DNA of 20,464 nucleotides, taken from UHGV virus genome UHGV-0121713, one strand, 5' to 3'. A program made the position numbers and the translations under genes. Under the pieces are notes generated by a model. The model saw only the letters and a program-made list of their open reading frames with translations. It searched no databases and was not told the origin of the DNA. Below are positions 603 to 17,794 of this stretch, piece by piece. The DNA is from a virus. Position 1 is the stretch's first letter; each line of letters begins with the position of its first letter.

Positions 603-616
603 AACAAAAAACCCAT
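603..616. repeat. Candidate attL core: 14-bp direct repeat AACAAAAAACCCAT, identical copy at 17637..17650
   Basis: Exact 14-mer found at both prophage boundaries (603..616 and 17637..17650), each forming the A-run plus the 5' arm of a terminator hairpin. Confidence 0.45.
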
Positions 617-631
617 TTATGTAAATGGGTT
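603..631 (-). terminator. Intrinsic terminator downstream of int (minus strand), overlapping the attL core
   Basis: Perfect hairpin aacccattta / taaatgggtt at 610..631, preceded on the + strand by an A-run (605..610), i.e. followed by a U-run on the minus strand. Confidence 0.5.
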
Positions 632-690
632 AGTGAAAACAACGACTTGCAAGATAATCAATAAGTTAGGTTGGTGGTCAGTGGTGGTTA

Positions 691-1743: not shown

Positions 1744-1931
1744 AAAAAATGCCCTCCAATAGAGAGCATTTTTACTGTATGTATAACCAGTGTCAATGTA
1801 TGAAATCCTGCGACCATACATCTCACTGAAGCCATAATGAAGTAGGCTATTCTTTTTGCTATGTGATCATGTAACTTTTGCGGTTAACCTGTGGCTCATT
1901 TTTATTTTAGGCGCAGATATAAAAGCAAAAG

Positions 1932-2123
1932 TTATCGTGAGTTTTTAGTACAGATTTTTTTGGATTTACTAATAGTTCCATCATTGCAAACGAATTTGCC
2001 ATCAGAGGTACAGTGAGAAACACCTCCCTTTTTCCCTGAGCAGGGATAATTTCTAGCATAGGTAGCTAGTGGGTTTAATAACAAAGAACATGACAAAACC
2101 ACAAAAAATACCTTACCAAGCAT
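1932..2123 (-). CDS. Small cysteine-rich protein with a predicted signal peptide (63 aa), immediately downstream of cI; candidate lysogenic-conversion (moron) gene
   Basis: [23 protein letters not shown] then a Cys/Lys/Gly-rich mature part with 4 Cys. GGGAG Shine-Dalgarno about 8 nt upstream of the ATG; the start lies 15 bp after the cI stop on the same strand. Confidence 0.5.
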
Positions 2124-2138
2124 AATTTACTCCCGGTA

Positions 2139-2708
2139 CTATTTAACATACTTGACTGTTAAACTTATAATTTTACCAATTATTTCAATGTCTTCTATCT
2201 TACATTCAAAGGCTCTGTTTCCACCCTCGACGAAGATTCTTCCACCGGGTAAACGAGTAATGTCACGGATCGTTATTTCGCCATCAATACTTATTACCCA
2301 TTTACCATCACGTATATCATCAAATTCCTTATCACAAATAAATTCAGAATTATTATCTGTGATTACAAAAAGATTCTTGAATGCCGACGGTAGAAATTCT
2401 CTATCGAAAATATAAAAACCGTCTTCACACAAGGCCCCATCAGATAATACATATTTAGCAACTTCCATAGTATTTGTATTACCTGAAGTTTGCTTTGAAC
2501 CATGCCCGGTTGTGAGCCAATTAAGCGAGGTGCCTGTTTCAAGGGCGCACTGGATTACCCATTCTGCTGGGAATGAGTCACGCATGTAGCGTGTGGCGAG
2601 TGTACTTTTAGAGATTCCTAAATGATCGCACAACGCCTGTCGAGTCTTGAATCCATAAGCTTCTACCATGCGCTCTATGGCGCCTCGTCCGCCTTTCTCC
2701 AAATTCAT
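2139..2708 (-). CDS. cI: Phage 186 CI-like immunity repressor (about 189 aa)
   Basis: N-terminal HTH-like segment (GFKTRQALCDHLGISKSTLATRYMRD), size and position between int and a divergent apl/cII operon as in coliphage 186. ATG at 2708 has a GGAG Shine-Dalgarno; the ORF-track start at 2714 is GTG. Confidence 0.75.
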   Translation of the reverse strand: MNLEKGGRGAIERMVEAYGFKTRQALCDHLGISKSTLATRYMRDSFPAEWVIQCALETGTSLNWLTTGHGSKQTSGNTNTMEVAKYVLSDGALCEDGFYIFDREFLPSAFKNLFVITDNNSEFICDKEFDDIRDGKWVISIDGEITIRDITRLPGGRIFVEGGNRAFECKIEDIEIIGKIISLTVKYVK

Positions 2709-2732
2709 GGTCACTCCAAGTGAACTTTTATC

Positions 2733-2761
2733 TTGACGATTTCACCGTGCGATCGTATGTT
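2733..2761 (+). promoter_or_regulatory. Candidate early lytic promoter (pR-like) in the cI/apl switch region
   Basis: TTGACG (2733..2738), 17-bp spacer, TATGTT (2756..2761), directed toward apl/cII. Flanked by CGATCGTAT (2750..2758) and CGATCCGTAT (2784..2793) direct repeats that could be operator elements. Confidence 0.4.
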
Positions 2762-2833
2762 TATGGTGTTCACAAAATACAAACGATCCGTATTCGTCCT
2801 GATTAATCATCATTAAACGAGGAATGTTGCATC

Positions 2834-3055
2834 ATGAGACCTAACATTTCAATCACTCTTACCACGCCTCATGTGACTATTGAACGCTATAGCGAGCTGA
2901 CAGGGCTATCCATCGATACCATCAATGACATGTTGGCTGATGGACGCCTTATCCGTCACCGTCTGCGCAAAGATAAAAAACGCGAAAAAGTGATGATCAA
3001 CATAGCAGCAATGACCGTTGATGCGCTTTCAGAATGCAATCTAAACCTTAATTAG
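2834..3055 (+). CDS. apl: Apl/Cox-like excisionase and transcriptional regulator (73 aa)
   Basis: Small basic protein, first gene of the rightward operon divergent from cI, GAGG Shine-Dalgarno 9 nt upstream. Assignment is mainly positional, by analogy to 186 apl. Confidence 0.55.
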
Positions 3056-3087
3056 TTCGATTCTGAAATACATCAGAGGCATTGACC

Positions 3088-3597
3088 ATGTTTGATTACC
3101 AAGTTTCCAAACATCCACATTTTGATGAAGCCTGTCGTGCATTTGCACTGCGCCACAATCTGGTGCAACTGGCAGAACGTGCAGGCATGAATGTGCAGAT
3201 TCTGCGGAACAAGCTGAACCCAGCTCAGCCTCATTTATTAACCGCACCAGAAATCTGGCTGCTTACCGATCTGACTGAAGATTCAACGCTGGTAGATGGT
3301 TTTCTGGCACAGATTCATTGTCTGCCATGTGTACCGATTAATGAGGTGGCAAAAGAGAAACTGCCACATTACGTCATGAGTGCAACCGCAGAGATCGGGC
3401 GTGTTGCTGCAGGTGCGGTGTCTGGCGATGTAAAAACCTGTGCCGGTCGTCGTGATGCTATCAGCAGCATTAACTCTGTAACACGACTGATGGCGCTGGC
3501 GGCTGTTTCATTGCAGGCCCGTTTACAGGCTAATCCTGCGATGGCGAGTGCAGTTGATACCGTGACTGGCCTCGGTGCTTCATTTGGTTTGCTGTGA
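3088..3597 (+). CDS. cII: Phage CII-like transcriptional activator (186 CII family), about 169 aa
   Basis: Translation [45 protein letters not shown]... matches my recollection of 186 CII in sequence and size. ATG 3088 has an AGAGG Shine-Dalgarno at 8-nt spacing; the ORF-track start at 3082 is TTG. Confidence 0.75.
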
Positions 3598-3604
3598 GGT
3601 GCTT

Positions 3605-3805
3605 ATGCTGACGAAAGAACCATCATTTGCATCGCTGCTGGTTAAACAAAGCCCGGCAATGCATTACGGTCACGGCTGGATCATGGGGGAGGATGGTAAA
3701 CGCTGGCATCCGTGCCGTTCACAAGATGAATTGCTGGCAGAACTATCTACGAAAAAACGGGGGAACAAATGGCTATTGAAGGCACTGCGGCGACTGTTCC
3801 ATTAA
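3605..3805 (+). CDS. Small early-operon phage protein (66 aa), occupying the position of fil in 186
   Basis: ORF in the early operon directly after cII; start ambiguous (GTG 3575 or ATG 3605). Function not recognisable from sequence. Confidence 0.4.
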   Translation: MLTKEPSFASLLVKQSPAMHYGHGWIMGEDGKRWHPCRSQDELLAELSTKKRGNKWLLKALRRLFH

Positions 3806-4110
3806 GCCCCGGTGAACGCCTGAATGGACTTAATCACATTGCGGAGTTAAGGGCGAAAGTTTTTGGCCTGAATATTGAGTCAGAGCTTGAGCGGTTTATT
3901 AAAGATATGCGTGATTCACGGGATATTAATAGCGAACAAAATAAACGGGCACTGGCTGCCATATTCTTTATGGCAAAAATTCCAGCTGAACGTCATAGCA
4001 TCAGCATTAATGAGCTGACCACTGACGAAAAGCGGGAGTTGATTAAAGCAATGAATCATTTTCGTGCAGTGGTGAGCTTATTTCCCAGACGGCTAACCAT
4101 GCCGAATTAA
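3769..4110 (+). CDS. Hypothetical early-operon phage protein (113 aa)
   Basis: ATG with GGGGGA Shine-Dalgarno 5 nt upstream; overlaps the previous ORF end, suggesting translational coupling. Confidence 0.5.
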   Translation: MAIEGTAATVPLSPGERLNGLNHIAELRAKVFGLNIESELERFIKDMRDSRDINSEQNKRALAAIFFMAKIPAERHSISINELTTDEKRELIKAMNHFRAVVSLFPRRLTMPN

Positions 4111-4177
4111 CCAACTAATGAAATTAATGGCGTAAACCCGCCGGGCATCCCTTTATCTAAATTCAGGAGAATTGATT

Positions 4178-4411
4178 ATGCGTAATATTGAAACCCTCTC
4201 GACCAAAACCGGACCGGATGACGCAGGGCTTAATATTTTACTGACAGAGGCTCGTCTGGAAGAACGCCGGGCAAGGGCTGAAGCAATGGCAGCTCGCCTT
4301 GATAGCTTGGCGTGTCATATCACATCCCGCCAGCTAACCCACGTCGAAGCGGCAGAACTGCTTCGTGTGACTGCTGAAGCAATCCAGAACGAAGCGCAGG
4401 AGATCCACTAA
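4178..4411 (+). CDS. Hypothetical early-operon phage protein (77 aa)
   Basis: ATG 4178 preceded by AGGAGA at 7-nt spacing (ORF-track start 4172 is TTG). Stop overlaps the next start (TAATG). Confidence 0.5.
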   Translation: MRNIETLSTKTGPDDAGLNILLTEARLEERRARAEAMAARLDSLACHITSRQLTHVEAAELLRVTAEAIQNEAQEIH

Positions 4412-4638
4412 TGGCTGATGCAATGGATCTCGTACAGCAGCGCGTTGAAGAAGAACGCCAACGCCATATCCGTGCTGCCCGTGCCAAAACGCCGGGCGTG
4501 TCCCGCGTGCTTTGCATTGAGTGTGAAGCGCCAATTCCGCCAGCACGCCGCCGTGCCATTCCGGGTGTGCAGCTTTGCATTACCTGTCAGGAAATCGCAG
4601 AGCTGAAAGGCAAACATTACAACGGAGGTGCTGTATGA
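4411..4638 (+). CDS. TraR/DksA-family C4 zinc-finger protein (75 aa)
   Basis: CIEC...(17 aa)...CITC four-cysteine motif in a small basic protein; typical phage/conjugative TraR-like protein found before gene A in P2-like phages. Confidence 0.7.
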   Translation: MADAMDLVQQRVEEERQRHIRAARAKTPGVSRVLCIECEAPIPPARRRAIPGVQLCITCQEIAELKGKHYNGGAV

Positions 4639-5492
4639 GCACCATCCTGAAATGGGCGGGAAATAAAACTGCCATAATGTCCGAACTGAAAAAACATCTT
4701 CCTGCTGGCCCGCGACTGGTTGAACCTTTCGCGGGTTCCTGTGCTGTGATGATGGAGACGGATTATCCCAGCTATCTGGTTGCGGATATTAATCCTGATT
4801 TAATCAACCTCTATAAAAAGGTTGCCGCTGATTGTGAATCGTTTATATCTCGCGCCAGAGTTTTATTTGAGATCGCAAACAGGGAGGTGGCTTATTACAA
4901 CATAAGGCAGGAGTTTAATTACTCAACTGAAATTACTGATTTCATGAAAGCGGTATATTTCCTGTATCTCAATCGTCACGGTTACCGTGGTTTATGTCGC
5001 TATAACAAGAGCGGGCATTTCAACATTCCCTACGGTAATTATAAAAATCCGTATTTCCCTGAAAAAGAAATTCGCGCATTTGCAGAAAAGGCCCAGCGAG
5101 CAACGTTTATCTGCGCCAGCTTTGATGAAACGCTGGCGATGTTGAAGGCGGGGGATGTGGTGTATTGCGATCCGCCGTATGACGGTACGTTTTCCGGCTA
5201 TCACACTGACGGCTTCACTGAAGATGACCAGTATCACCTGGCATCTGTTCTTGAACATCGGTCATCAGAAGGACATCCGGTCATTGTTTCTAACAGTGAC
5301 ACATCCCTGATCCGTTCGCTGTATCGCAATTTTACTCACCACTACATCAAGGCAAAACGCAGCATCGGTGTGGCAGCTGGCGAGGGTAAATCAGCAACAG
5401 AAATCATTGCTGTTTCCGGGCCGCGCTGCTGGGTGGGATTTGATTATTCGCGTGGCGTGGATAGTTCTGCCGTGTACGGAGTACGTGCATGA
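4635..5492 (+). CDS. dam: DNA N6-adenine methyltransferase, Dam (D12 class) family, about 285 aa
   Basis: N-terminal LKWAGNK...EPFAGSCAV (SAM-binding motif) and the catalytic DPPY tetrapeptide (CDPPYDGTF). ATG 4635 overlaps the previous stop (ATGA) and its stop overlaps the gene A start. Confidence 0.85.
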
Positions 5493-7903
5493 GTCATGCC
5501 GATATGAACAACTGCTGCGGCTTTAACGAAGCTGCCGCATCGTTCTCATGGAACAGCTCGAAAAAGGCCATTAACCCTTATCTGGACCCGGTGGAAGTTG
5601 CGCCGGTTTCTACGCTTTCAAACCTGATCACTCTGTACGCTGCCGATAACGAGCAGGAACAGCTGCGCCGTGAGGCGCTGAGTGATCAGGTCTGGGAGCG
5701 TTATTTCTTTAATGAATCCCGTGATCCTGTCCAGCGCGAAATGGAACAGGATAAGCTCATTAGTCGGGCAAAGCTGGCGCATGAGCAGCAGCGTTTTAAT
5801 CCGGATATGGTCATTCTGGCGGACGTCAACGCCCAGCCTTCCCATATCAGCAAGCCGCTGATGCAACGTATTGAATACTTCAGCAGCCTGGGCAGGCCAA
5901 AGGCTTATTCCCGCTATTTACGTGAGACGATTAAGCCATGTCTGGAACGACTGGAGCATGTACGCGACAGTCAGCTATCTGCATCTTTTCGCTTTATGGC
6001 AAGCCATGAAGGGCTGGACGGCCTGCTGATCCTGCCTGAAATGAGTCAGGATCAGGTGAAACGCCTGTCCACCCTGGTAGCTGCGCATATGAGTATGTGC
6101 CTTGATGCCGCTTGTGGCGATTTGTATGCCACCGATGACGTTAAGCCAGAAGAAATCCGCAATACATGGGAAAGGGTGGCAGCGGAAACCCTGCGTCTGG
6201 ATGTCATCCCGCCTGCGTTTGAGCAACTCCGTCGGAAAAGAAACCGCCGTAAACCCGTGCCCTATGAACTCATTCCGGGTTCGCTGGCGCGTATGTTGTG
6301 CGCCGACTGGTGGTATCGGAAATTATGGAAGATGCGTTGCGAATGGCGGGAAGAGCAGTTGCGTGCTGTCTGCCTTGTCAGCAAAAAAGCATCTCCCTAT
6401 GTCAGCTATGAAGCCGTGTTGCATAAACGTGAGCAGCGCCGTAAGTCGCTGGAGTTTTTCCGTTCTCATGAACTGGTGAACGAAGACGGCGACACGCTAG
6501 ACATGGAGGATGTGGTAAACGCCAGCAGCAGCAACCCTGCGCATCGCCGCAATGAGATGATGGCCTGTGTTAAAGGTCTGGAGCTTATCGCGGAAATGCG
6601 CGGTGACTGCGCCGTTTTCTACACCATCACCTGTCCGTCACGTTTCCATTCCACGCTAAATAACGGCAGGCCCAACCCGACCTGGACAAATGCGACGGTA
6701 AGACAAAGCAGCGATTATCTGGTCGGTATGTTTGCTGCATTTCGTAAGGCGATGCACAAAGCCGGGTTGCGCTGGTATGGCGTGCGGGTGGCTGAGCCGC
6801 ATCACGACGGCACAGTTCACTGGCACCTGTTGTGTTTCATGCGCAAAAAAGACCGCCGCGCCATTACAGCATTGTTGCGTAAGTTTGCTATCCGTGAAGA
6901 CCGCGAGGAGCTGGGCAATAACACGGGGCCGCGCTTTAAGTCTGAGCTGATTAACCCGCGCAAAGGAACGCCGACAAGCTACATAGCGAAATACATCAGT
7001 AAGAACATTGACGGGCGTGGTCTGACTGGCGAGATCAGCAAGGAAACGGGTAAATCTCTGCGTGATAACGCTGAATACGTGAATGCCTGGGCGTCTTTGC
7101 ATCGTGTTCAGCAATTCCGCTTCTTTGGCATTCCGGGGCGTCAGGCTTACCGTGAACTGCGATTGCTGGCTGGTCAGGCGGCAAGGCAAAAGGGGGACAA
7201 AAAAGCAGGTGCGCCGGTACTGGATAACCCGCGCCTTGATGCCATCCTGGCTGCTGCTGATGCTGGTTGTTTTGCCACCTACATCATGAAGCAGGGCGGC
7301 GTACTGGTTCCCCGTAAATATCACCTCATCAGAACCGCTTATGAAATCAACGAAGAGCCGACCGCCTATGGCGATCACGGCATTCGTATTTATGGCATCT
7401 GGTCACCCATTGCAGAGGGCAAGATCTGCACTCATGCAGTGAAGTGGAAAATGGTTCGTAAAGCCGTTGACGTTCAGGAGGCGGCAGCCGACCAGGGCGC
7501 TTGCGCCCCTTGGACTCGTGGCAATAACTGTCCCCTTGCTGAAAATTTGAACCAACAGGAGAAAGATAAATCAGCTGATGGGGACACCAGAACGGACATT
7601 ACCCGCATGGATGACAAGGAGTTGCACGATTACCTGCACAGTATGAGCAAAAAAGAGCGCCGGGAACTGGCTGCAAGGTTACGCCTGGTGAAACCGAAAC
7701 GGCGTAAAGACTACAAACAGCGAATTACAGACCATCAGCGACTGCAGCTCGTCTATGAGCTGAAGTCCAGAGGATTTGATGGTAGCGAGAAAGAGGTCGA
7801 TTTACTCCTTCGCGGCGGCAGTATTCCGTCAGGAGCAGGCCTGCGTATCTTCTATCGGAACCAGCGTTTGCAGGAAGATGATAAGTGGCGGAACCTGTAT
7901 TAA
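5489..7903 (+). CDS. A: P2 gpA-family replication initiation (rolling-circle nicking) protein, 804 aa
   Basis: Large protein at the end of the early operon with the size and position of P2/186 gene A. Contains a HWHLLCF-type histidine-hydrophobic motif and tyrosine-rich motifs ([10 protein letters not shown]) typical of rolling-circle initiators. Confidence 0.85.
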
Positions 7904-7972
7904 TTACGCGGGTTAACAATTCGTGCTCTTAATAATACCAGGCATATCAGGCTGATGAACGTAAAAAAACGT

Positions 7973-8015
7973 TTTACATCAGTAATATTATTATATACTG
8001 TAAATATAAACAGTA
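7973..8015 (+). promoter_or_regulatory. SOS-regulated promoter: -35 TTTACA (7973..7978), -10 TATACT (7994..7999), overlapping LexA box TACTGTAAATATAAACAGTA (7996..8015)
   Basis: 20-bp site matches the LexA consensus CTGT-N8-ACAG with an AT-rich centre and overlaps the -10, the classic SOS operator arrangement. It lies inside the ORF-track ORF beginning at 7955, which argues against that start. Confidence 0.7.
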
Positions 8016-8056
8016 GTTATCTATACAGTATTGTTTGCGGTGTCATAGGAGGAAAG

Positions 8057-8245
8057 ATGCAGGACTATTTTTTGGAGTCTTTGAAGCTCCAGCGCATTGA
8101 TTTTTTTCTTAAGCTTGTAGCGGCTAGTGAGTGTAGTGATGAAGAGAAGGGGCTGGCTCTGCAGTGGGTTTCTGAACTGACAGATGAACTCATGGCAAAA
8201 ATCAGAACCCACGAATACAACCGCTCAATGGATGTCATCAGCTGA
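8057..8245 (+). CDS. Small protein (62 aa), first gene of the LexA-controlled operon; possibly part of a Tum-like antirepressor module
   Basis: ATG 8057 preceded by AGGAGG; downstream of the LexA box; followed 10 bp later by the DinI-like gene. Confidence 0.45.
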   Translation: MQDYFLESLKLQRIDFFLKLVAASECSDEEKGLALQWVSELTDELMAKIRTHEYNRSMDVIS

Positions 8246-8255
8246 GGTGACTTTT

Positions 8256-8489
8256 ATGCGCATTGAAATAATGATCGATAAAGAGCAGAAGATTAGCCAG
8301 TCTACACTGGACGCCCTTGAATCCGAGCTTTACCGCAATCTGCGCCCTCTGTATCCCAAAACGGTAATCCGTATCCGTAAAGGTAGCTCTAACGGTGTGG
8401 AACTGACCGGACTGCAACCGGACGAAGAAAGAAAACAAGTGATGAAAATTATGCAGAAGGTGTGGGAAGACGACAGCTGGCTGCATTAA
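8256..8489 (+). CDS. DinI-family protein (77 aa), probably SOS-inducible; comparable to the DinI-like part of 186 Tum
   Basis: MRIEIMIDK...LDALESELYRNLRPLYP...VWEDDSWLH resembles E. coli DinI (MRIEVTIAK...) in length and in the acidic tryptophan-containing C-terminus. GAGGTGA Shine-Dalgarno upstream. Confidence 0.7.
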   Translation: MRIEIMIDKEQKISQSTLDALESELYRNLRPLYPKTVIRIRKGSSNGVELTGLQPDEERKQVMKIMQKVWEDDSWLH

Positions 8490-8933
8490 GAAATGTTGCC
8501 CCCAGGAGGATTCATTCTAATGGGGGCTAGTTTGGGCAACGAGTGAAACGAGGCGTAAGGTGGGTAATCATTTTGATAAGTGATCGCCCACTTTGTGCCA
8601 AAAGCGGACATCGCAGATATGACAATATGTTAGTCAACCGCGATTAGATCAGTCAGTTGGAGATGGGGGGAAGTTACAAAAACTTGTCGTCCGCCATCTC
8701 CGACTACGGGTATTCTTAACTGTACATGCTCTTTCAATCGATGATTTTTGAGTAAGTGACTAACCTATTGTTTTGATAGTAATTAAACGTATAAACGTGC
8801 GGAGTTAATTTGAAAGTTATGTGTCTATGTTTGACAAGCAAAATTTTAAAGATTGGTTTTATCCACAGGTAATTTATGCTATTAATAGCCTCAAGCCCTG
8901 TAATTATTTTTATTTAAATGGATAAATTTGAAA

Positions 8934-11054
8934 ATGAGTACATATCATAATGATCAGCCAATACTAGGTGGTCAAAATGACCCCGATTTATTAAACAGGC
9001 TCGATTTTGCAAATCACTTGGCAAATATTCTACTATTAAATCACAATGATGATTGCCTTACTGTATCTATAGAGGCAGAGTGGGGATATGGTAAAACGTC
9101 AGTGATAAATCTTATAAAAGGTGCTTTGAATGAAAAGGAGTTCTTACCAATAATAATAGAATATAATCCATGGCTGGCCGGTCAACCTGAATCCTTGATT
9201 CAGGATTTTTTATTACAGTTCTCTTCACAACTAAATATTAAAGACAATTCAAAAGCTGCTTTGGAAGCTTCAAAAGAATTAATTGCATACTCCAATCTCT
9301 TCAGTGTAGCAAAACTTATTCCAGGGACAGAACCTTGGGCATCTATCATAGAAAAAGTCCTCTCTAATTTTGGGAGTGCTACTAAAAAGATTGCTGAATT
9401 AAAAAAACTGGATCTTTTAGGTAGAAAAAAACAAGTAGAGAAGGCAATAAAAAAAATAAAAAATCCTATTGTGGTAATAATTGATGATATTGATCGATTG
9501 ACTCCTGCAGAAACTTTTCAAGTTTTACGATTGGTTAAAGCAGTTGCAGATTTCTCAGGAACTTCTTTTTTACTTGCATTTGATCCTAATTATTTGATTT
9601 CTGTGCTTGATAAAAATAATATCGTCAATTCTTCGGAGTATCTTAATAAAATTGTTCAACTTCGAGTCCCACTTCCTGTAATCTCAGAAAGGGGTATGAA
9701 TGAACTTGCAAATGCAGAACTGGAAAAGATAGCTAATAAATCTTTAACTGACAGATTCGAAAGTGATCAAGAAAGACTAAGCTGGATTTATCATAATTAT
9801 TTTAAAAAACTAATTAAGAATCCGAGAGAGTTAAAAAGATTTTTTAACCATTTGAGATTCGTTTTAGAGCAAATTGAAGGGCAGGTATGTTTTTCTGATC
9901 TCTTTGCTTTATCTCTGGTCGCCACTAAATCGAGTTTGGTATACGAGCATATTAAAAGCACACCAGAGGCATATATAGGGAAGAGATTCACTAATGATGG
10001 CCTTTTGATGGATAAACCTCAAGATATTGTGGATAGATTTAGTGATGAGCGAAATAAGAAACTGAGTAATTTTTCTGATCAAGAGCGTTCAGTGATGCAG
10101 GAACTCTTAGGAGATATTTTCCCACTTCTACAGTCAAGCGGGTATTCTCATTATGGGGTTTCTGATCCCGATACAGCAGGAAGGGTTTCTGCACCACAAA
10201 GGCTTCATATTGCGTTTCATTATAAAACTCCAGCAGGGTATATTTCTGATCATGATATTATCAGTTTCATTAATGGAGATGTCAAAAGAAACGAATTTCT
10301 AAGAGATGTGCTCTCGCAAAATGCAGAAGAAAGATTTTTTGAAATGATGAATAATTATTCGAGTTATTGTAAGGATAATAGTTTTGAAATATTAACGTGT
10401 ATTTATGATACTTTTCTGTTTTCTCAAGAATTGAAATCCTCATTGGAAAGAAACTATGGTTTTTTGACAAAAGATCTTTATAGAAGGATGAATTGGCTCA
10501 CTAATAAGGTAATATCTGAAAGTGATGATAAATATGGGTTAATAAAGGGGGTTGTAGGTAGGCATGAGAATGCGCCACTTGGTGCAGACGTATTATGCCA
10601 AGCTCGTAAACAGATTCAAAATGGATGGAATGACAAAATATGGGTTAGTATTGAAGAATTGGCTGAACTTGAAGGTATCTTTCAACAGGTGGCTATTAAA
10701 GTTTTAAGTGATAAAATATATTTTGATTATCATCTTGAATCTCATATATTTTTCGAATTAAAGAGAGTTTCATCTCAATTTACATCAGAGTTTATTGCTT
10801 CTGTATTATCAAGTGATGGCCTGATTAGGATGTGTGAGATTATTGGTGAAACAGGTAGTGATTCAACAAATGGCCCTTATTTTAAGTTTGATGAAATTTA
10901 CTTCGGGGAAATACTTGATGTGAATGAACTTCGAAATAAAGCGAAAAATTTAGATTTTTCAATTTATCCCACACGCATTCAAGCTGTACTTAAGAGTATT
11001 CTGGATGGACAAAAATATTATTTGAGAGATGCAACTGTTGGTGAAGATTGGTAA
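8934..11054 (+). CDS. KAP-family P-loop NTPase (PifA-like), about 706 aa; candidate abortive-infection/defence protein
   Basis: Walker A EAEWGYGKTS (about 9072..9101) and KAP-type Walker B IVVIIDDIDRL (about 9465..9500). Gene is visibly AT-rich with several A7-A8 tracts, unlike the flanking phage backbone. ORF-track start 8928 is TTG; the first ATG is 8934. Confidence 0.7.
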   Translation: MSTYHNDQPILGGQNDPDLLNRLDFANHLANILLLNHNDDCLTVSIEAEWGYGKTSVINLIKGALNEKEFLPIIIEYNPWLAGQPESLIQDFLLQFSSQLNIKDNSKAALEASKELIAYSNLFSVAKLIPGTEPWASIIEKVLSNFGSATKKIAELKKLDLLGRKKQVEKAIKKIKNPIVVIIDDIDRLTPAETFQVLRLVKAVADFSGTSFLLAFDPNYLISVLDKNNIVNSSEYLNKIVQLRVPLPVISERGMNELANAELEKIANKSLTDRFESDQERLSWIYHNYFKKLIKNPRELKRFFNHLRFVLEQIEGQVCFSDLFALSLVATKSSLVYEHIKSTPEAYIGKRFTNDGLLMDKPQDIVDRFSDERNKKLSNFSDQERSVMQELLGDIFPLLQSSGYSHYGVSDPDTAGRVSAPQRLHIAFHYKTPAGYISDHDIISFINGDVKRNEFLRDVLSQNAEERFFEMMNNYSSYCKDNSFEILTCIYDTFLFSQELKSSLERNYGFLTKDLYRRMNWLTNKVISESDDKYGLIKGVVGRHENAPLGADVLCQARKQIQNGWNDKIWVSIEELAELEGIFQQVAIKVLSDKIYFDYHLESHIFFELKRVSSQFTSEFIASVLSSDGLIRMCEIIGETGSDSTNGPYFKFDEIYFGEILDVNELRNKAKNLDFSIYPTRIQAVLKSILDGQKYYLRDATVGEDW

Positions 11055-11170
11055 TACTTTTATAGGCATGCTTAGAGATGATGGAGTATCTTTTTCTCCC
11101 TTTTGAGGAAGTGATTTCCAACTGGGCATGGATGCCACATCAAATGGACAGTTGTTGTCACCTGTCAGTT

Positions 11171-11240
11171 AGCTGCTATTTGTTTATAGCAGCTGAAAGC
11201 CCACTACATAGTTACACCAGAAGGAGTAACAATGTAGTGG
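11171..11240. repeat. Two adjacent strong inverted repeats (hairpins) in the intergenic region after the KAP gene
   Basis: IR1: agctgctat (11171..11179) / atagcagct (11186..11194), perfect 9-bp stem. IR2: ccactacatagttac (11201..11215) / gtaacaatgtagtgg (11226..11240), 14 of 15 bp paired with AAGGAG in the loop. The 10-mer CCACTACATA recurs at 11478..11487. Confidence 0.5.
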
Positions 11241-11496
11241 ATAGCTAAATTTGACCACCTTAACAGATATGTTAATTTCCCCCCTCGCTCACAGCGGACT
11301 TTCATCTTTGTAAACCCTTATAATTCGCTTTTCAGCGGTCATTCAGATACGGATTTACGCTTTCCTTGGCAGTGCATGACTATGACGCATGAGATCGCAT
11401 GATCGTTTGAGGATCGTTTTTGCTGAGGCCAGCCAGAACTGGCGTGCTTTTGCTTATGTCATGCAGGTGCATGAAAACCACTACATAAAGTGGGCA

Positions 11497-11515
11497 GGCG
11501 TGGCGGGGATACGAG
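11497..11515. other. Candidate cos (cohesive-end) remnant of the P2/186 family
   Basis: GGCGTGGCGGGGA (11497..11509) matches the first 13 nt of the 19-nt P2/186 cohesive end as I recall it (GGCG[A/T]GGCGGGGAAAGCA[C/T]); the next 6 nt diverge. It sits in a local GC-rich patch inside otherwise AT-rich cargo. Not verified by alignment. Confidence 0.3.
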
Positions 11516-11645
11516 CGCGCGCTAACTCTTGGCTTTGTTTCATAATCAAAAATGTGATCATTGAGATTATTCTTAATTTTATGTTTGTCTATGAAATATC
11601 ATTTCGCTTAACATTGTTTGAGTTAGGACTACATGAGAATAAAGA

Positions 11646-12221
11646 ATGCTTTTACCCGTAAGTGTTACATCGTGTGGCTTGTATCACCCCTACTGGCATT
11701 TGGGAGAGCGCAACCCTCATAGCGATGAACTATCAAGGCAGATGATGGATTTTAAGGATGAAAATAATCGTAATCATCAAAGGGCTATTAACCGTTTTTC
11801 TCGATTAGCTATAGATAAGGTTGGGCGGTTAGTAATCAGAGGTGGCGGTGGGCGTTTTGTTGAGTCTCCTTTTTCGATAGCAGTCGTCCCATCTCACACT
11901 GAAGGCAGAATTTCACCGGCTTTGATTGAGGTCGCCGAGCGAATCGTAAATGTTCACCGTCGGGGCATTGTTGATTGCTGTTTGGAAAGAACACGCACTG
12001 TTCCTAGCGCACATCGTGAAGGAGGAGATCGCTCAATTACTGGTCACATGTCTAGTATCAGAGTTAGGGGTGGTAACCTCATGGGGCGAAATGTGTTACT
12101 ACTAGATGATGTTAAAACAACAGGCGGTAGTTTGTCTGCGTGTTTTTATTTACTGGAGTCTGCAGGAGCTGGAGTTATAATGCCATTAGCTCTGCTAGAA
12201 ACTGCAAACTATGAGGAGTAG
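11646..12221 (+). CDS. Type I phosphoribosyltransferase (PRTase) domain protein, 191 aa; candidate defence effector (ShosT-like / ComF-like)
   Basis: PRPP-binding signature VLLLDDVKTTGGSL (hydrophobic stretch-DD-x-x-TTG). In-frame TAA two codons upstream fixes the 5' limit. Overlaps the next gene by 11 nt. Confidence 0.7.
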   Translation: MLLPVSVTSCGLYHPYWHLGERNPHSDELSRQMMDFKDENNRNHQRAINRFSRLAIDKVGRLVIRGGGGRFVESPFSIAVVPSHTEGRISPALIEVAERIVNVHRRGIVDCCLERTRTVPSAHREGGDRSITGHMSSIRVRGGNLMGRNVLLLDDVKTTGGSLSACFYLLESAGAGVIMPLALLETANYEE

Positions 12222-13185
12222 CAAAGTGCACTCAGAAGAATTAAAAAATACACTTGGATTAGCTATTCAAATCGGGAAGCTAGCATCTGATCAAAGTGTA
12301 TTGAAATTCTTTGAGCTTATTGATTTTGATGTTATTCGTGATATACGCGACTTAACTGAGATGGTTAATAGCCACGGGTTTCTAAAAGATAAAATATCTG
12401 AGACTGATTTTCTAATAGCGAATGCTGAATTGGAGAACCACCATGTTAATGGTGTGGAGCTAATACCATATGGGTCTGAATTCTATCCTCTTAGTTTAGC
12501 GTTTACTCCTAATCCACCATCAATTCTCTACATAAAAGGGGATAAAAGTATACTAAAAGAATTGCCGGGTGTCGCAATTGTAGGATCCCGTGATACTTCC
12601 CCTGCAGGGGAAGAAATAACGAGGCGAATCACTAATCAGATAGTGTCTGCTGGGTATATTGTTGTAAGTGGGTTAGCAATAGGCACTGATGCGAATGCTC
12701 ATAAGGCAACGTTACAAGCAAAAGGAAAAACCATTGCTGTCTTGGCGCATGGTCTTGAGGAGGCTAAGCCGAAGCAAAACAGTCGACTTGCTCAAGAGAT
12801 TCTGGATAAAGGTGGTGCATGGATTTCTGAGTATCCTATGGGGCGACCGGCCCAGAAACAATCATTTGTACAAAGAAATCGGATACAAGTTGGATTATCT
12901 GCAGGTTCAATTTTAATCGAGGCTGCGTTAAATAGCGGAACGATAACTCAAGCTGAGTTTGCAAATAAGGCTAAAAGACCAGTGTTTGCGGTTGTACCTC
13001 ACCTACCTAATAATCCGCTTAATCTTAATTGTGAGGGAACAGTTGATTTAGTTAAGAGCAACATGGCTAGAGCGTTAAAAACAAAACGGGATTATGATGA
13101 TGTGATTATGATCATAAATGAGTCTCGGGAGTATTTGTTAGAGCTAAAATGGCCAGGGAAACAGAGTACATTAGACTTGATTTAA
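12211..13185 (+). CDS. DprA/Smf-like (SLOG-superfamily Rossmann) protein, about 320 aa; candidate defence partner (ShosA-like)
   Basis: DprA core motifs VAIVGSRDTSPAGEE and IVVSGLAIGTDANAHKA, then TIAVLAHGLEE and RNRIQVGLS. Start is ATG 12211 or GTG 12226 (the latter has a GGAG Shine-Dalgarno at 7-nt spacing). Confidence 0.75.
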   Translation: MRSSKVHSEELKNTLGLAIQIGKLASDQSVLKFFELIDFDVIRDIRDLTEMVNSHGFLKDKISETDFLIANAELENHHVNGVELIPYGSEFYPLSLAFTPNPPSILYIKGDKSILKELPGVAIVGSRDTSPAGEEITRRITNQIVSAGYIVVSGLAIGTDANAHKATLQAKGKTIAVLAHGLEEAKPKQNSRLAQEILDKGGAWISEYPMGRPAQKQSFVQRNRIQVGLSAGSILIEAALNSGTITQAEFANKAKRPVFAVVPHLPNNPLNLNCEGTVDLVKSNMARALKTKRDYDDVIMIINESREYLLELKWPGKQSTLDLI

Positions 13186-13209
13186 AGCGCCTCTTTTAGA
13201 GGCACTTTG

Positions 13210-13866
13210 CTAAATTTGATATCTCTCGAATTTTATAATTTCTTCACCGCTCCAATGATTAAATTCTTTCATTCTTTTTTGTAATGGTAATAATTCATTT
13301 TTCACAAATACCTTACTAGCTTTTTCTACATCCCCAAATCCCCCAACATTATTAGGCATTATCCCCATCATCTGTGGCGGAACGCGATGTGCTGCCATCA
13401 TGTCATCCCGGCTCACGTTCTTGATATTTAGAAACTCATCCTTCGCCGCAACTTCTGACAAAGGGATGATCTGAAGGCCGTCCTTTTTGCCGTTAGGCGA
13501 GTACATAAACAGGTTGCGGAAGTTACCCGGACCTTTGGCACTTTTCATTGCATTGCGGAGGTTGTTCACGTCCTCCTGGTTCTGCGCAGCATCGGTCATG
13601 TACATGATGAAGCCTGCATGACTACCGTTAATGTAATACTTGCGGCGGAACAGCGTGGCGGACTCATTGAGCAGGGCGGACGGAATGGCAGAAAGATAGC
13701 TGGGCAGGCCGTAGATCTCCTGGTTAATGTCCGGTTCCATCAGATGAAAAATGCTGCCTTTCGTGAACTGATACGGCTGGGTTGTCATACCGTATTGCAC
13801 AAACCAGTAGGTATCCAGGTCTAACCCGCGTCGGGTGTATTTTGCCAGAGCAGGCTCAAGGGCGAC
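13210..13866 (-). pseudogene. Q: 3' fragment of the portal gene Q (P2 gpQ family), 5'-truncated by deletion
   Basis: Encodes about 218 aa of portal-like C-terminal sequence (...YINGSHAGFIMYMTD...LQIIPLSEVAAKDEF...). The open frame runs upstream into unrelated sequence; the N-terminal third and the adjacent terminase P are absent. Upper boundary is approximate. Confidence 0.65.
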
Positions 13867-14054
13867 AACGACAACACCGGATTGAGGAACTGAAACGTGA
13901 GAACGAGGATTTACGCCGCTGGGCTGATACACCTTTGCCTGCTGACATTATCCGGCTGCGGGAACGCCCCACACTCACCGGAGGTGCAGATTACCGTCAG
14001 TGGTTGTCCGCGAGTGACGCCGTGTCGGCTGGGACAGGCAGCGCCGCGCACTAA
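13866..14054 (+). pseudogene. lysB: 3' fragment of lysB (Rz-like inner-membrane spanin), 5'-truncated
   Basis: Coiled-coil, charged C-terminal peptide ...HRIEELKRENEDLRRWADTPLPADIIRLRERP directly upstream of R, as in P2 (lysA-lysB/lysC-R-S). No holin or endolysin upstream. Boundary approximate. Confidence 0.45.
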
Positions 14055-14187
14055 CGGTGGCCTGAACGCGTTGCTGGATGAAACGGAGGCCGCCTGGGCG
14101 GTCTGTGCAGACAAAGTGGACATGATTATTGCGTGTCAGGAGCGAAACAGTGAACAAACCACAATCCCTGCGCCACGCCCTCAATAA
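13897..14187 (+). CDS. lysC: LysC-like (Rz1-type outer-membrane spanin lipoprotein) embedded ORF; probably non-functional remnant
   Basis: +1-frame ORF inside lysB with lipobox LTLSGC and a proline-rich tail; GTG start; stop overlaps the R start. Confidence 0.35.
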   Translation: MRTRIYAAGLIHLCLLTLSGCGNAPHSPEVQITVSGCPRVTPCRLGQAAPRTNGGLNALLDETEAAWAVCADKVDMIIACQERNSEQTTIPAPRPQ

Positions 14188-14581
14188 AGCGGTGCCTTAT
14201 GTCCGCAATAACCCGGACAAACTGCATCTGTTTGTGGATAACGGTTCGCTGGTTGCCACGGGGGCCAGCTCCATGTCATGGGAGTACCGCTATACCCTGA
14301 ACGTGGTGATAGAGGATTTCAGCGGCGACCAGAATCTGCTGATGGCCCCGGTTTTACTGTGGCTTCGGGATAACCAGCCCGATGCCATCAATAACCCGGC
14401 GTTACGGGAAAAGCTATTCACCTTTGAGGTGGATATTTTGCGCAACGATGTCTGTGATATCAGCCTTAACCTGCAATTGACGGAACGTGTGCTGGTCAGT
14501 ACTGACGGCAGTGTGTCGAGCGTTGAAGCTGTAGCAGAACCCGATGAACCTGAAGAAATGTGGACGGTGAAACGTGGCTGA
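14150..14581 (+). CDS. R: Tail completion protein (P2 gpR family), about 143 aa
   Basis: MNKPQSLRHALNKAVPYVRNNPDKLHLFVDNGS... resembles my recollection of P2 gpR (MLKPDSLRRAL...IFVDNGS). GTG 14150 with AGGAG Shine-Dalgarno at 7 nt; ORF-track start 14129 is TTG. Confidence 0.7.
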   Translation: MNKPQSLRHALNKAVPYVRNNPDKLHLFVDNGSLVATGASSMSWEYRYTLNVVIEDFSGDQNLLMAPVLLWLRDNQPDAINNPALREKLFTFEVDILRNDVCDISLNLQLTERVLVSTDGSVSSVEAVAEPDEPEEMWTVKRG

Positions 14582-15020
14582 ACTGCAGAAGGTGGACGAC
14601 TGGCTGAGTGCCTTGCTGGCGAATCTGGAACCAGCCACGAGAAGCCGCATGATGCGCCAGCTGGCGCAGGAACTGCGCCGGACACAGCAGCAGAATATCA
14701 GGATGCAGCGCAATCCAGATGGCAGCAGTTATGAACCGCGCAGGGTAACAGCACGCAGCAAGAAAGGCCGCATCAAACGTCAGATGTTTGCAAAGTTGCG
14801 CACCACAAAATACCTGAAAACTGCCGCCAGCGCCGACTCTGCCAGCGTACAGTTTGAAGGCAAGGTGCAGCGTATTGCCCGTGTTCACCATTACGGCCTG
14901 CGTGATCGCGTCAGTCGCAAAGGACCGGAGGTCCGTTACGCAGAGCGCCGCCTGCTGGGTGTAAATGATGATGTTGAGGCAATGACCCGCGACATGATTC
15001 TGCAATGGCTGGCGGGGTGA
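14574..15020 (+). CDS. S: Tail completion / virion morphogenesis protein (P2 gpS family), 148 aa
   Basis: Follows R with overlapping GTG start and stop (GTGGCTGA), matching the P2 R-S order and size. Confidence 0.65.
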   Translation: MAELQKVDDWLSALLANLEPATRSRMMRQLAQELRRTQQQNIRMQRNPDGSSYEPRRVTARSKKGRIKRQMFAKLRTTKYLKTAASADSASVQFEGKVQRIARVHHYGLRDRVSRKGPEVRYAERRLLGVNDDVEAMTRDMILQWLAG

Positions 15021-15088
15021 TCTTTGTATCAGCACTGATACAAGTTGCAGCACTGCCGCCTTTCTTCCCCTGATGGCAACCTTTCCCT

Positions 15089-15295
15089 ATGAACGCACAA
15101 TTAACCGAAATCATGCGCCTTATCACCAACCTGATCCGCACTGGTGTAGTCACCGAAGTGGACCGGGAAAACTGGCTTTGCCGGGTGAAAACGAGCGACC
15201 TTGAAACCAACTGGATTAACTGGCTGACGCTGCGCGCGGGTAAACGCGCTGCCGCAGGACAAGCGCCTGTCTGCCATGACTATGTTGTTTGGTAA
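15089..15295 (+). pseudogene. V: 5' fragment of baseplate spike gene V (68 codons), truncated
   Basis: MNAQLTEIMRLITNLIRTGVVTEVDRENWLCRVKTSDLETNWINWLTLRAGK resembles the P2 gpV N-terminus; the frame ends after 68 codons where tape-measure-like sequence begins in another frame. Confidence 0.6.
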
Positions 15296-16082
15296 AGAGT
15301 TTGGCGATGACGCGGCGAAACTGGCAAACAACCTGCCGGAACTGCAGCGTCAGTTAAAACTGACAGCGGGCAATGATGCGCTTGGCTCCATGCAGAAAGA
15401 ATCCGACATTAACAAGGATTCACTTTCTGCGCAGTGGTTGCTGGTCAAAACCGGAGCGCAGAACACCTTCAGCAGCCTGGGCGAAACGCTGCGCCAGCCG
15501 CTGATGGATATTCTGTACACGGTGAAAAGCATCACGGGAGCGTTGCGCCGCTGGGTGGAAGCTAACCCGGAACTGACAGGCACACTGATGAAAGTATCGG
15601 CTGTTGTGGCTGCGGTTACCGTCGGCCTCGGCACCTTAGCGGTGGCGCTGGCTGCAGTGCTGGGGCCGCTGGCAGTGATCCGTCTGGGATTCTCTGTGTT
15701 GGGTATCAAAACGTTATCTTCCGTTACGGCAGCAGTAACTCGAACCAGCAGCGCGTTGTCCTGGCTGGCTGGCGCACCACTGGCACTGCTGCGACGCGGG
15801 CTTGCTTCATCGGGCAACGCCGCAGGTTTACTTACTGCGCCGTTGTCGTCTTTGCGCCGCACGGCATCACTGACGGGAAATGTCCTGAAAACTGTAGCAG
15901 GTGCGCCGGTTGCACTTTTGCGGTCTGGATTATCCGGTTTACGTGCTGTTGCTGTGATGTTTATGAATCCTCTGGCGGTACTGCGCGGTGGACTGGCCGC
16001 CGCAGGCACGGTGCTGCGAGTACTGGCATCTGGTCCACTGAATCATTGTCCGATATGTTCGGTGATCTCAGTGCGCAACTGA
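15276..16082 (+). pseudogene. T: Internal fragment of tail tape-measure gene T
   Basis: Ala/Leu/Gly-rich repetitive hydrophobic segment typical of tape-measure proteins; only about 268 codons, abutting the V fragment. W, J, I, H, G, FI, FII, E and most of T/U are absent. Confidence 0.55.
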
Positions 16083-16149
16083 ATAATCTGCAGGACACGG
16101 CAACGTCTGCCTTAAGCGATATCAGTAAAACGGTGGGAGGGCTGCTGTC

Positions 16150-17250
16150 GTGAATTTCAGCTCTGAACTGCTTAACAAAGGCAACAAAACTCCCGCATTC
16201 AGCATCAGTATTGAGGGCAGGGATATCACCACTGTGCTGGATAACCGCCTGATGAGTCTGACGCTGACGGACAATCGGGGCTTTGAAGCGGACCAGCTTG
16301 ATCTGGAGCTGGACGACGCCGATGGAAAAATAGCGCTGCCGCGCCGTGGTGCGGTCGTTACGCTGGCGCTGGGCTGGAAGGGGCAGCCGCTTTTCCCGAA
16401 AGGGGCATTCACGGTGGACGAGATTGAACACACTGGCGCACCGGACCGCCTGACTATCCGGGCGCGAAGTGCTGATTTTCGGGAAACGCTGAATACCCGC
16501 CGTGAAAAGTCGTGGCACAAGACCACTGTCGGGGAAGTGGTGAAGGAAATAGCTGTGCGGCACAAACTGAAGATGGCACTGGGTAAAGACCTGTCAGATA
16601 AACCCGTGGAACATATAGACCAGACCAATGAGAGTGACGGCAGTTTTCTGATGCGGCTGGCGCGCCAGTACGGTGCTATTGCGTCGGTGAAAAATGGCAA
16701 TCTGTTATTCATCCGGCAGGGACAGGGTAAAAGCGCCAGCGGTAAACCACTACCGGTGATCACTATCACACGTAAGGACGGCGACAGTCACCGCTTTACC
16801 CTGGCAGATCGCGGAGCCTATACGGGCGTAATTGCCAGTTGGTTGCATACCCGCGAACCCGCGAATAAAGAAAGCACCACGGTGAAGCGTAAGCGCAGGA
16901 CTAAGAAGCAGAAGAAAGAGCCGGAAGCGAAGCAGGGCGATTACCTGGTGGGTACGGATGAAAACGTGCTGGTACTTAATCGCACCTATGCCAACCGGAG
17001 CAACGCCGAACGGGCGGCAAAAATGCAGTGGGAACGCCTGCAACGCGGCGTTGCGTCATTCTCGCTACAACTGGCGGAAGGGCGGGCAGATCTCTACACG
17101 GAAATGCCAGTGAAAGTCAGTGGCTTTAAACAGCTGATAGATGATGCGGAATGGACCATTACGACTCTGACACATACCGTCAGCCCGGATAACGGTTTTA
17201 CGACCAGTCTGGAGCTTGAAGTGAGGATTGATGATTTCGAAATGGAATGA
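16150..17250 (+). CDS. D: Tail protein D (P2 gpD / late control D family), 366 aa
   Basis: Position immediately before ogr at the prophage right end, and size, match P2 gpD. GTG start with GGGAGG Shine-Dalgarno at 9 nt, overlapping the stop of a short upstream U-like remnant frame. Confidence 0.75.
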   Translation: MNFSSELLNKGNKTPAFSISIEGRDITTVLDNRLMSLTLTDNRGFEADQLDLELDDADGKIALPRRGAVVTLALGWKGQPLFPKGAFTVDEIEHTGAPDRLTIRARSADFRETLNTRREKSWHKTTVGEVVKEIAVRHKLKMALGKDLSDKPVEHIDQTNESDGSFLMRLARQYGAIASVKNGNLLFIRQGQGKSASGKPLPVITITRKDGDSHRFTLADRGAYTGVIASWLHTREPANKESTTVKRKRRTKKQKKEPEAKQGDYLVGTDENVLVLNRTYANRSNAERAAKMQWERLQRGVASFSLQLAEGRADLYTEMPVKVSGFKQLIDDAEWTITTLTHTVSPDNGFTTSLELEVRIDDFEME

Positions 17251-17340
17251 TTCTTCGCAATGGAGAACTTTTAAGTTTGCAAAATGGAATAATGCGGTAT
17301 CATTATTGTGAATTTAGCAAAAATGGGGAGAACTCGAAAA

Positions 17341-17559
17341 ATGATGATTTGCCCACTGTGTGGAAGTGCCGCCCATACTCGCAGCAGTTTTCAGGTATCT
17401 TCATTGACCAAAGAGCGTTACAACCAGTGCCAGAACATTAACTGCAGCCATACTTTTGTTACCCATGAAACTTTTGTTCGTTCGATTGCAACGCCAAAAG
17501 AGTCAAATCCGGTTCAGCCGCATCCAATGAAATCAGGACAGGTAGCGCTCTCTCTTTGA
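17341..17559 (+). CDS. ogr: Ogr/Delta-family zinc-finger late transcription activator, 72 aa
   Basis: MMICPLCGSAAHTRSS...ERYNQCQNINCSHTF matches the P2 Ogr CxxC...CxxxxC zinc-finger pattern and its 72-aa length. ORF-track start 17308 is an upstream GTG extension. Confidence 0.8.
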   Translation: MMICPLCGSAAHTRSSFQVSSLTKERYNQCQNINCSHTFVTHETFVRSIATPKESNPVQPHPMKSGQVALSL

Positions 17560-17636
17560 CGCTGCCGCCATTTTGTCGCCATCGTTAAAAAACAGTGCTT
17601 CTAACATCATGATCTTAAACAGCTTAAATTTCAGGC

Positions 17637-17650
17637 AACAAAAAACCCAT
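17637..17650. repeat. Candidate attR core: AACAAAAAACCCAT, identical to 603..616
   Basis: Exact 14-bp direct repeat of the left boundary, located between ogr and the ybjL 3' end. Confidence 0.45.
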
Positions 17651-17682
17651 CAACCTTGAACCGAAGTAGCGGGGTTGATGGG
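17637..17682 (-). terminator. Intrinsic terminator of ybjL (minus strand)
   Basis: Stem cccatcaacc (17646..17655) / ggttgatggg (17673..17682), followed on the minus strand by a U-run (the + strand A-run at 17641..17645). Confidence 0.5.
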
Positions 17683-17794
17683 CTCCACAAAATGGGGGCA
17701 TCAAAGAAAAGCAGTGGCACTAATTAAGACTGATGCCCTGCGGAAAAGTTCTGCGGTTGTGCAAAAAAATTTCATTTTCAGGGCAACTTCAGTT

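Follow-up and report, generated by a model that had tools for sequence, protein, structure and literature searches.

Two cargo modules astride cos in the gpA-gpQ hotspot of a decayed 186/P2-like prophage: a probable PifA-like KAP NTPase and a minimal relative of Shosta

What do three AT-rich genes contribute when they sit between the replication gene A and the remnant of the portal gene of a decayed prophage, and do they form one unit? We address this question in UHGV virus genome UHGV-0121713, a stretch of DNA of 20,464 nucleotides that we refer to as the window. The genes encode, in this order, a KAP-family P-loop nucleoside triphosphatase (NTPase), a phosphoribosyltransferase (PRTase) and a DprA-like protein, which the initial annotation had read as a single island of defence cargo. 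We find that positions 8490-13210 are the gpA-gpQ hotspot of P2-like phages, with two horizontally acquired cargo modules on either side of the cos site, one probably a minimal Shosta-type pair and the other a PifA-like KAP NTPase. The hotspot and the defence cargo of the earlier interpretation stand; the single island and an argument from selection do not.

The gpA-gpQ interval is a known defence hotspot, as the initial annotation had stated. It was described by Rousset et al. 2022, who report 1650 arrangements from 18,150 locus occurrences (PMC9122126), and was re-analysed in a 2026 preprint by Moura de Sousa et al. As in the window, the hotspot of these studies lies between the replication endonuclease and the portal gene, adjoins cos and shows cassette-like turnover. 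The supplementary hotspot table of the former study already lists the exact arrangement WP_000109153 + WP_001324531 (PMC9122126). Both are proteins of this island; the PRTase does not appear there, as PGAP leaves it unannotated. The locus is of an already published kind, with hotspot, turnover and gene arrangement all known. It carries one likely new member of the KAP defence ATPases and what appears, from its sequence, to be one minimal Shosta variant.

Two cargo slots split by cos

Three intact plus-strand open reading frames (ORFs) lie between the stop of a DinI-like gene (8489) and the minus-strand portal remnant (Table 1). Their order, an 11-nt overlap between the second and third and their domain matches agree with the earlier description of a KAP gene followed by an overlapping PRTase and DprA-like pair, to which two additional small genes between gene A and the cargo (8057-8245 and 8256-8489) have to be added. 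The cargo is also more AT-rich than the phage backbone, a statement for which figures are now available: the GC content is 0.334 for KAP, 0.453 for the PRTase and 0.398 for the DprA-like gene, compared to 0.532 for gene A and 0.548 for late-gene remnants. At third codon positions (GC3) the values are 0.24, 0.35 and 0.31 against 0.58 for gene A. Comparison with diverged copies elsewhere in E. coli gives ratios of nonsynonymous to synonymous substitution rates (dN/dS) of 0.18 for KAP, 0.07 for the PRTase and 0.06 for the DprA-like gene. This purifying selection indicates that all three are real, functional genes. An Rfam scan revealed no RNA family inside the island and only RybB outside it. A promoter and terminator scan gave counts near the shuffled expectation and was left unused.

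To map cos, we connected the linear phage 186 record end to end, right to left, and aligned the product to the window. Positions 11458-11522 span the joined end junction, and the 19 nt at 11497-11515 (GGCGTGGCGGGGATACGAG) match the annotated 19-nt cos of phage 186 (GGCGTGGCGGGGAAAGCAT) at 15 of 19 positions. The site falls within the 592 bp of non-coding DNA that separate KAP from the PRTase, in a conserved block (11371-11525) that 1242 of 5426 complete E. coli genomes share at 80-95 % identity, about the number that have P2-like flanks. The same block occurs in P2-like phages of Klebsiella, Salmonella and Yersinia. A 90-aa ORF at 11389-11661 with a weak Amidohydro_2 match overlies cos and is almost certainly spurious; its equivalent in strain AR_0019 is annotated as a pseudogene with an internal stop.

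Since cos lies between KAP and the PRTase/DprA-like pair, the interval consists of two cargo slots and not of a single unit. While Rousset et al. and Moura de Sousa et al. take the interval as one hotspot, here cos maps inside it with cargo on both sides. The A-to-cos slot, occupied by KAP in the window, is the place of tin/old in P2 and of orf97 in 186. Its segment 8606-11285 is absent from the prophage of strain E2348/69, where an unrelated 581-bp segment is found instead. The slot 2 segment is common to E2348/69-type prophages that lack KAP and is absent from D7-type prophages, which have a PDC-S06 ATPase in its place. The gene orders are correspondingly a small hypothetical gene, cos and the same PRTase/DprA pair in E2348/69, and the same KAP, cos and the PDC-S06 ATPase in D7. 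Strain AMA1167 has a protein with an HsdR N-terminal domain, then cos, then a different KAP, and E. coli B carries the retron Ec86 between cos and the portal gene. Across E2348/69, D7, E. coli B, AMA1167 and AR_0019 the genes of the interval vary with conserved flanks. The two slots are independently swapped and are not one island.

We surveyed the 5426 genomes for each module with the segments 8650-11280 (KAP), 11560-13190 (pair) and 8400-13300 (both). The KAP module was found in 18 genomes at a minimum of 99 % identity and in 2 more at 79 %. The pair was found in 23 genomes at 95 % identity or above and in 11 more at 76 %. Both modules occur together in only 5 genomes, and these islands are all at least 99.8 % identical. 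KAP occurs without the pair in D7-type prophages and the pair without KAP in E2348/69-type prophages. One of the 79 % KAP copies stands by itself in a different P2-like prophage, between gpD and ogr; for the pair, a 76 % copy sampled in strain RM10410 is located in a non-P2 island. Outside E. coli, the KAP orthologues of Vibrio parahaemolyticus and Enterobacter cloacae each stand alone in a small variable islet. A tightly spaced pair of short PRTase and DprA genes, in this order, is present in a Mu-like prophage of Shewanella algae, in the same P2 hotspot of Pectobacterium and in a P4-like element of Hafnia. KAP is one autonomous cargo module and the PRTase/DprA pair another.

It is conceivable that the three adjacent, co-oriented genes nevertheless form one cooperating system, for example with KAP as a sensor that feeds or synergises with a Shosta effector. 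There is a precedent in the KAP NTPase tmn, which synergises with other defence systems and co-occurs with PsyrTA, a DprA/PRTase relative (10.1101/2022.08.21.504612). Such a system is very unlikely, and we reject it on distribution and on the position of cos: cos, 592 bp of non-coding DNA and a shift in GC separate the modules, each module is far more often found alone than accompanied by the other (18 and 23 versus 5 genomes), orthologues in other genera have no such partner, and KAP does not match the tmn model.

A minimal relative of Shosta

Hidden Markov model searches of the three proteins returned defence families in PADLOC, namely PifA for KAP (6.7e-65) and ShosT and ShosA for the pair (3.6e-14 and 2.8e-70). 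This agrees with the defence character first proposed for the cargo. In the pair, the ATG of the DprA-like gene (12211) lies within the 11 nt that it shares with the PRTase, whose TAG stop is at 12219-12221; the genes are co-oriented, and homologues with as little as 40 % identity retain both the toxin-then-antitoxin order and the spacing. The PRTase family is tight, with lengths of 189-193 aa. The loop that binds phosphoribosyl pyrophosphate (PRPP), LLLDDVKTTGGS at aa 151-162, has D155 invariant in 22 homologues and D154 in at least 90 %, and a GDRS motif is invariant across the family. All 22 aligned family members match the PADLOC ShosT model and 1 of the 22 matches a second ShosT model, PDLC03012.

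The relation of the PRTase to ShosT had to be established by structure comparison because sequence searches gave either nothing or the PRPP loop only. Pfam yields a sub-threshold Pribosyltran match on that loop, and a single-sequence search of solved structures returned no match for the PRTase. The AlphaFold2 model (pLDDT 90.4) has its best PDB matches in ShosT (8zvc, 8zvd and 8zvb), followed by Helicobacter pylori ComFC (7p0h), with Foldseek E 3e-5 and TMq 0.51-0.54 against 8zvc and 8zvd. The DprA-like protein aligns with solved ShosA (8zva, 1.6e-29; 9vzo, 1.7e-29) over the Rossmann core (query aa 68-260) and equally well with true DprA. Judged by sequence and predicted structure, the pair is a minimal, PRTase-only relative of Shosta, for which the solved structures 8zva-8zvd, 9vzo and 9w2p are available for comparison.

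The characterised ShosT, from E. coli APEC O1 (pFR105 of Rousset et al.), consists of 424 aa, in which an N-terminal pyrophosphatase domain (residues 1-164) is joined to a PRTase domain. Its D331 and D332 are essential for toxicity, while the pyrophosphatase mutant R56A is only slightly less toxic (PMC11961720). The aspartates D154 and D155 of the window loop are the equivalent of D331 and D332. The APEC O1 system and the window pair both reside in the P2 hotspot as a toxin-then-antitoxin operon in which a PRTase with the PRPP-loop aspartates precedes a DprA-like Rossmann protein; they differ in toxin length (424 versus 191 aa), in the HAD/pyrophosphatase domain, which the window toxin lacks, and in the side of cos that they occupy (A versus Q side). 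PsyrTA and RqlHI also have a DprA-like antitoxin, and the DprA-like protein of the window matches the PADLOC model of PsyrA (1e-30). The toxin PsyrT, however, contains a large helicase domain of the RecQ-like type (profile length 689), which is missing from the window PRTase. The possibility that the PRTase derives from a long ShosT by frameshift or truncation, the 90-aa ORF at 11389-11661 then encoding the N-terminus, was ruled out: homologues down to 40 % identity all have 189-193 aa, the dN/dS of the PRTase is 0.07 and the 90-aa ORF overlies cos.

RefSeq/PGAP omits the 191-aa PRTase in strains BE311, E2348/69 and NCTC9041, where the locus-tag numbers skip; in other strains it does annotate a copy of 76 % identity, the start being shortened. 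Being left unannotated, the toxin gene makes the pair look like an orphan DprA in RefSeq.

By analogy with published work on Shosta (PMC11961720 and PMC12961424), we hypothesize that module 2 (11646-13185) would act as a minimal Shosta-type toxin-antitoxin and abortive-infection pair. The PRTase, if it is toxic as ShosT is, would consume PRPP and interfere with both nucleotide metabolism and DNA replication. Its translationally coupled DprA-like partner would be a type IV antitoxin, binding single-stranded DNA and RecA and compensating for the damage rather than binding the toxin. The phage trigger may be a shut-off of host synthesis, after which a labile antitoxin would decay. Alternatively, phage replication intermediates may occupy the antitoxin and so release the toxin.

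The same properties could serve addiction only, with post-segregational killing stabilising the carrier but no action against other phages. In favour of this, ShosTA is a genuine toxin-antitoxin pair, the pair is carried on several kinds of mobile element, and a prophage that is losing other genes has retained it. A long-form ShosTA from the same hotspot, however, protects 10^6-fold against T7, and the hotspot is enriched for validated defence systems. The two roles are moreover not mutually exclusive, and we regard addiction alone as improbable.

A second alternative is that the DprA-like and ComF-like pair is no toxin-antitoxin system and serves phage DNA metabolism, for instance by handling single-stranded DNA or cos ends with RecA. 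The pair lies directly beside cos, ComFC 7p0h follows ShosT among the structural matches of the PRTase, the comF model TIGR00201 aligns over its aa 28-183, and DprA and ComFC are reported to cooperate in natural transformation (PMC9005727). We consider this explanation highly improbable. The pair is absent from most P2-like phages (present in 34 of about 1250 genomes with cos), which argues against a core function; it is found in unrelated elements and in a non-phage island; and the PRTase, at only 191 aa, has no ComF zinc-finger N-terminus. A minimal Shosta-type pair remains the preferred reading of module 2.

A soluble PifA-like KAP NTPase

KAP has a Walker A motif AEWGYGKTS (aa 46-54) and a Walker B motif VVIIDD (aa 180-185), both invariant in 37 homologues. 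We found no transmembrane helix, the top 19-residue Kyte-Doolittle mean being 1.48. The C-terminal domain (about aa 440-706) is all-alpha and confidently folded in the model, and has no detectable relatives. The family of about 707 aa is conserved at 68 % identity or more across Vibrio, Aeromonas, Shewanella, Serratia, Yersinia and Klebsiella. PifA, with 218 bits, is its best PADLOC match, and hhalign against PifA of the F plasmid gives a probability of 99 % over aa 21-339 with 32 % identity in 295 columns. A sequence search of solved structures returned no match for KAP, and the closest solved structure is RdrA of the RADAR system. Searching plasmids with tblastn revealed matches of 28 % identity at most, covering the NTPase region alone in all but one record.

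PifA and KAP are both soluble, mobile-element-borne KAP P-loop NTPases (about 700-740 aa) with homologous NTPase halves. They differ in their C-terminal halves, which are not detectably related, in the pifC partner, which KAP lacks, and in their carriers, plasmid versus prophage. Unlike RADAR, the window has no RdrB adenosine deaminase beside KAP. Other KAP/STAND defence ATPases for comparison are QatA, PDC-S20, EF_KAP, tmn and the P4-borne KAP system Reve. The scores of KAP with QatA and PDC-S20 are weak (1e-12 to 1e-21) and Qat partner genes are absent. The tmn protein, whose PADLOC model KAP fails to match, and EF_KAP have transmembrane helices; KAP has none and so differs from the prokaryotic membrane type of Aravind et al. 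2004. PifA of the F plasmid excludes T7 in response to gp1.2 and gp10. In Enterococcus, KAP NTPases whose C-terminal regions are uncharacterised provide Walker-B-dependent single-gene defence (PMC12632615). On these sequence relationships a defence role of KAP is likely. We propose that module 1 (8934-11054) acts alone, most likely as an NTP-driven switch whose helical C-terminal domain would recognise a phage product and trigger growth arrest or exclusion.

Alternatively, KAP may be a moron unrelated to defence, regulating a host process or controlling superinfection by its own phage. PifA would offer a parallel, since its primary role, on one view, is something other than T7 exclusion. KAP stands among housekeeping genes in Vibrio and Enterobacter, lies downstream of a LexA-controlled operon and takes the position of orf97 in 186, a gene whose expression from a plasmid prevents infection by 186. 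Against this, most tested cargo of the hotspot is defensive, the best profile and structural relatives of KAP are the defence proteins PifA, PDC-S20, QatA and RdrA, and the Vibrio islets also contain variable genes of the Imm49 type. We consider a moron unlikely, although it deserves some weight.

Several observations weigh against the assignment of the two modules to defence. For KAP, the PifA profile is covered at 2-456 of 720 positions only, while PifA of F itself reaches 963 bits over the full profile, and BLASTP and hhalign confine the homology to aa 21-360 at 26-32 % identity. The N-terminal half of the KAP model is of low confidence, and neither Pfam nor structure comparison recognised an effector domain in the C-terminal part, which would also suit a moron. 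In addition, 2 of the 20 E. coli KAP alleles are disrupted, by IS1 (IS1A) or by a split into two ORFs (strains SCU-176 and C21), so that KAP is dispensable and sometimes lost. For the pair, a profile search with the PRTase meets solved ShosT at a generic PRPP-loop level only (19 bits), and no N-terminal HAD-like pyrophosphatase domain was found in the window PRTase or in its 189-193-aa family, the sequence upstream being cos and non-coding DNA. The only experimentally tested Shosta with an identifiable source is the long APEC O1 form, which the pFR105 insert places on the A side of cos, in the opposite slot.

The carrier prophage and its cargo

By its gene content the source element is a decayed 186/P2-like prophage, as had been proposed from the start. 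Gene A, CI/CII/Fil, a tum/DinI-like gene with an upstream LexA box and the 186-like cos are marks of the 186 type. The window is flanked by rcdA on one side and by ybjL/ybjM/grxA on the other. It aligns in four blocks to an intact 34.0-kb P2-like prophage of E. coli BE311 (and of three other genomes), with 2 mismatches in the left block of 13,869 bp (99.99 % identity), none in blocks 2 and 3 (100 % identical) and 4 in the right block. The window equals the BE311 prophage minus three internal deletions of 6930, 8723 and 1329 bp, which removed the portal N-terminus, the terminase, scaffold and capsid genes and part of the lysis cassette, as well as the baseplate, fibre, sheath and tube genes and most of the tape-measure gene. 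The deletions must be very recent, as the left arm up to 13869 is nearly identical to the intact copy. They are too recent, and the whole left arm (int, cI, A and others) is kept, so that retention of the cargo says nothing on selection. The idea that selection had preserved the cargo while virion genes were lost has accordingly been abandoned. The features of the locus are given in Table 1.

Table 1 Features of the cargo interval and its surroundings (coordinates of the window)
Feature	Position	Strand	Evidence
Gene A	5489-7903		Pfam Phage_GPA 2e-127
LexA box, CTGT-N8-ACAG, full site TACTGTAAATATAAACAGTA	7998-8013	+	Sole perfect match in the window
62-aa orf, conserved backbone, left hotspot edge	8057-8245	+	PGAP annotation of the identical BE311 locus
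DinI/tum-like gene, conserved backbone	8256-8489	+	Pfam DinI 2e-22; PGAP at the identical BE311 locus
Cargo slot 1, A side of cos (virion DNA right end), KAP module and AT-rich flanks	8606-11285	+	GC 0.34
KAP-family P-loop NTPase, 706 aa, soluble	8934-11054 (ORF also from 8928; PGAP ATG 8934)	+	Pfam KAP_NTPase 2e-46
Conserved phage cos region	11371-11525 (~155 bp)	+	GC 0.52
19-nt cohesive-end sequence GGCGTGGCGGGGATACGAG	11497-11515	+	Alignment to joined phage 186 ends
Cargo slot 2, Q side of cos (virion DNA left end), PRTase and DprA-like gene	11526-13209	+	GC 0.41
Short ShosT-like PRTase, 191 aa, putative toxin	11646-12221	+	PADLOC ShosT 3.6e-14
ShosA-like DprA-family protein, 324 aa, putative antitoxin	12211-13185	+	Pfam DNA_processg_A 1.4e-60; PADLOC ShosA 2.8e-70
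Portal (gpQ/W) remnant, C-terminal 220 codons	13210-13869 (ORF 13210-13932)	-	Pfam Phage_portal 5.7e-12; BE311 portal alignment

The backbone common to the window and E2348/69 extends to 8605. The LexA box lies at the same place as the LexA site of the SOS promoter p95 of phage 186 (TACTGTATGTTTATACAGTA), upstream of an operon formed by the small orf and the DinI/tum-like gene and ahead of cargo slot 1. The KAP gene, at the position of 186 orf97, might be expressed by SOS read-through. Downstream of the DinI-like gene, at the position of the partial terminator t95a in 186, there is a GC-rich hairpin (8498-8527, dG -19.5).

The deletion junctions at 13864-13869, 15239-15243 and 16039-16040 show microhomologies of 2-6 bp (GAYAAC, GGTAA and TG), and the ORF at 15276-16082 is a fusion of tape-measure and gpU fragments across a junction. 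A 14-bp direct repeat (AACAAAAAACCCAT) at 603-616 and 17637-17650 represents attL and attR. The latter coincides with the 3' end of the small RNA gene rybB (17637-17715, minus strand; Rfam 97.7 bits), which places the integration at the rybB terminator. Three of the four single-nucleotide differences between the right block and BE311 lie inside rybB (17666, 17668 and 17698). From attL to attR (603-17650) the remnant measures 17,034 bp, 50.1 % of the intact prophage of 34,016 bp, and retains int, cI, gene A/ori, cos and ogr. Two copies joined head to tail would have the length of one P2-type genome, and packaging by a helper phage is conceivable; the remnant in NCTC9041 differs (19.2 kb), and the half-length may be a coincidence. 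The gap between the integrase gene and cI (1822-2138), a second, minor P2 hotspot, is AT-rich (GC 0.36) with a 63-aa ORF at 1932-2123. At this place E2348/69 has a PDC-S20-type KAP NTPase and an extra CI-like gene.

Taken together, it is quite possible, if not quite probable, that both halves of the following proposal hold: that the KAP of about 707 aa represents an uncharacterised single-gene anti-phage family, present as a lone gene at no less than 68 % identity through Vibrio, Aeromonas, Shewanella and Enterobacterales, and that the 191-aa PRTase with its DprA-like partner is a functional minimal Shosta. The widespread PifA-like KAP NTPase and the minimal Shosta are two cheap, well-defined cloning candidates. 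Conceptually the locus adds little, and its practical value lies in the two slots, the hidden toxin gene and these candidates. In RefSeq proteomes, protein-based tools such as DefenseFinder or PADLOC would find the DprA without its partner and overlook a complete Shosta-like pair. If the minimal Shosta is functional, the pyrophosphatase domain of ShosT would be dispensable. Finally, cargo at both termini of the packaged genome bears on how cassettes are swapped and possibly on which cargo is the first or the last to enter a cell.

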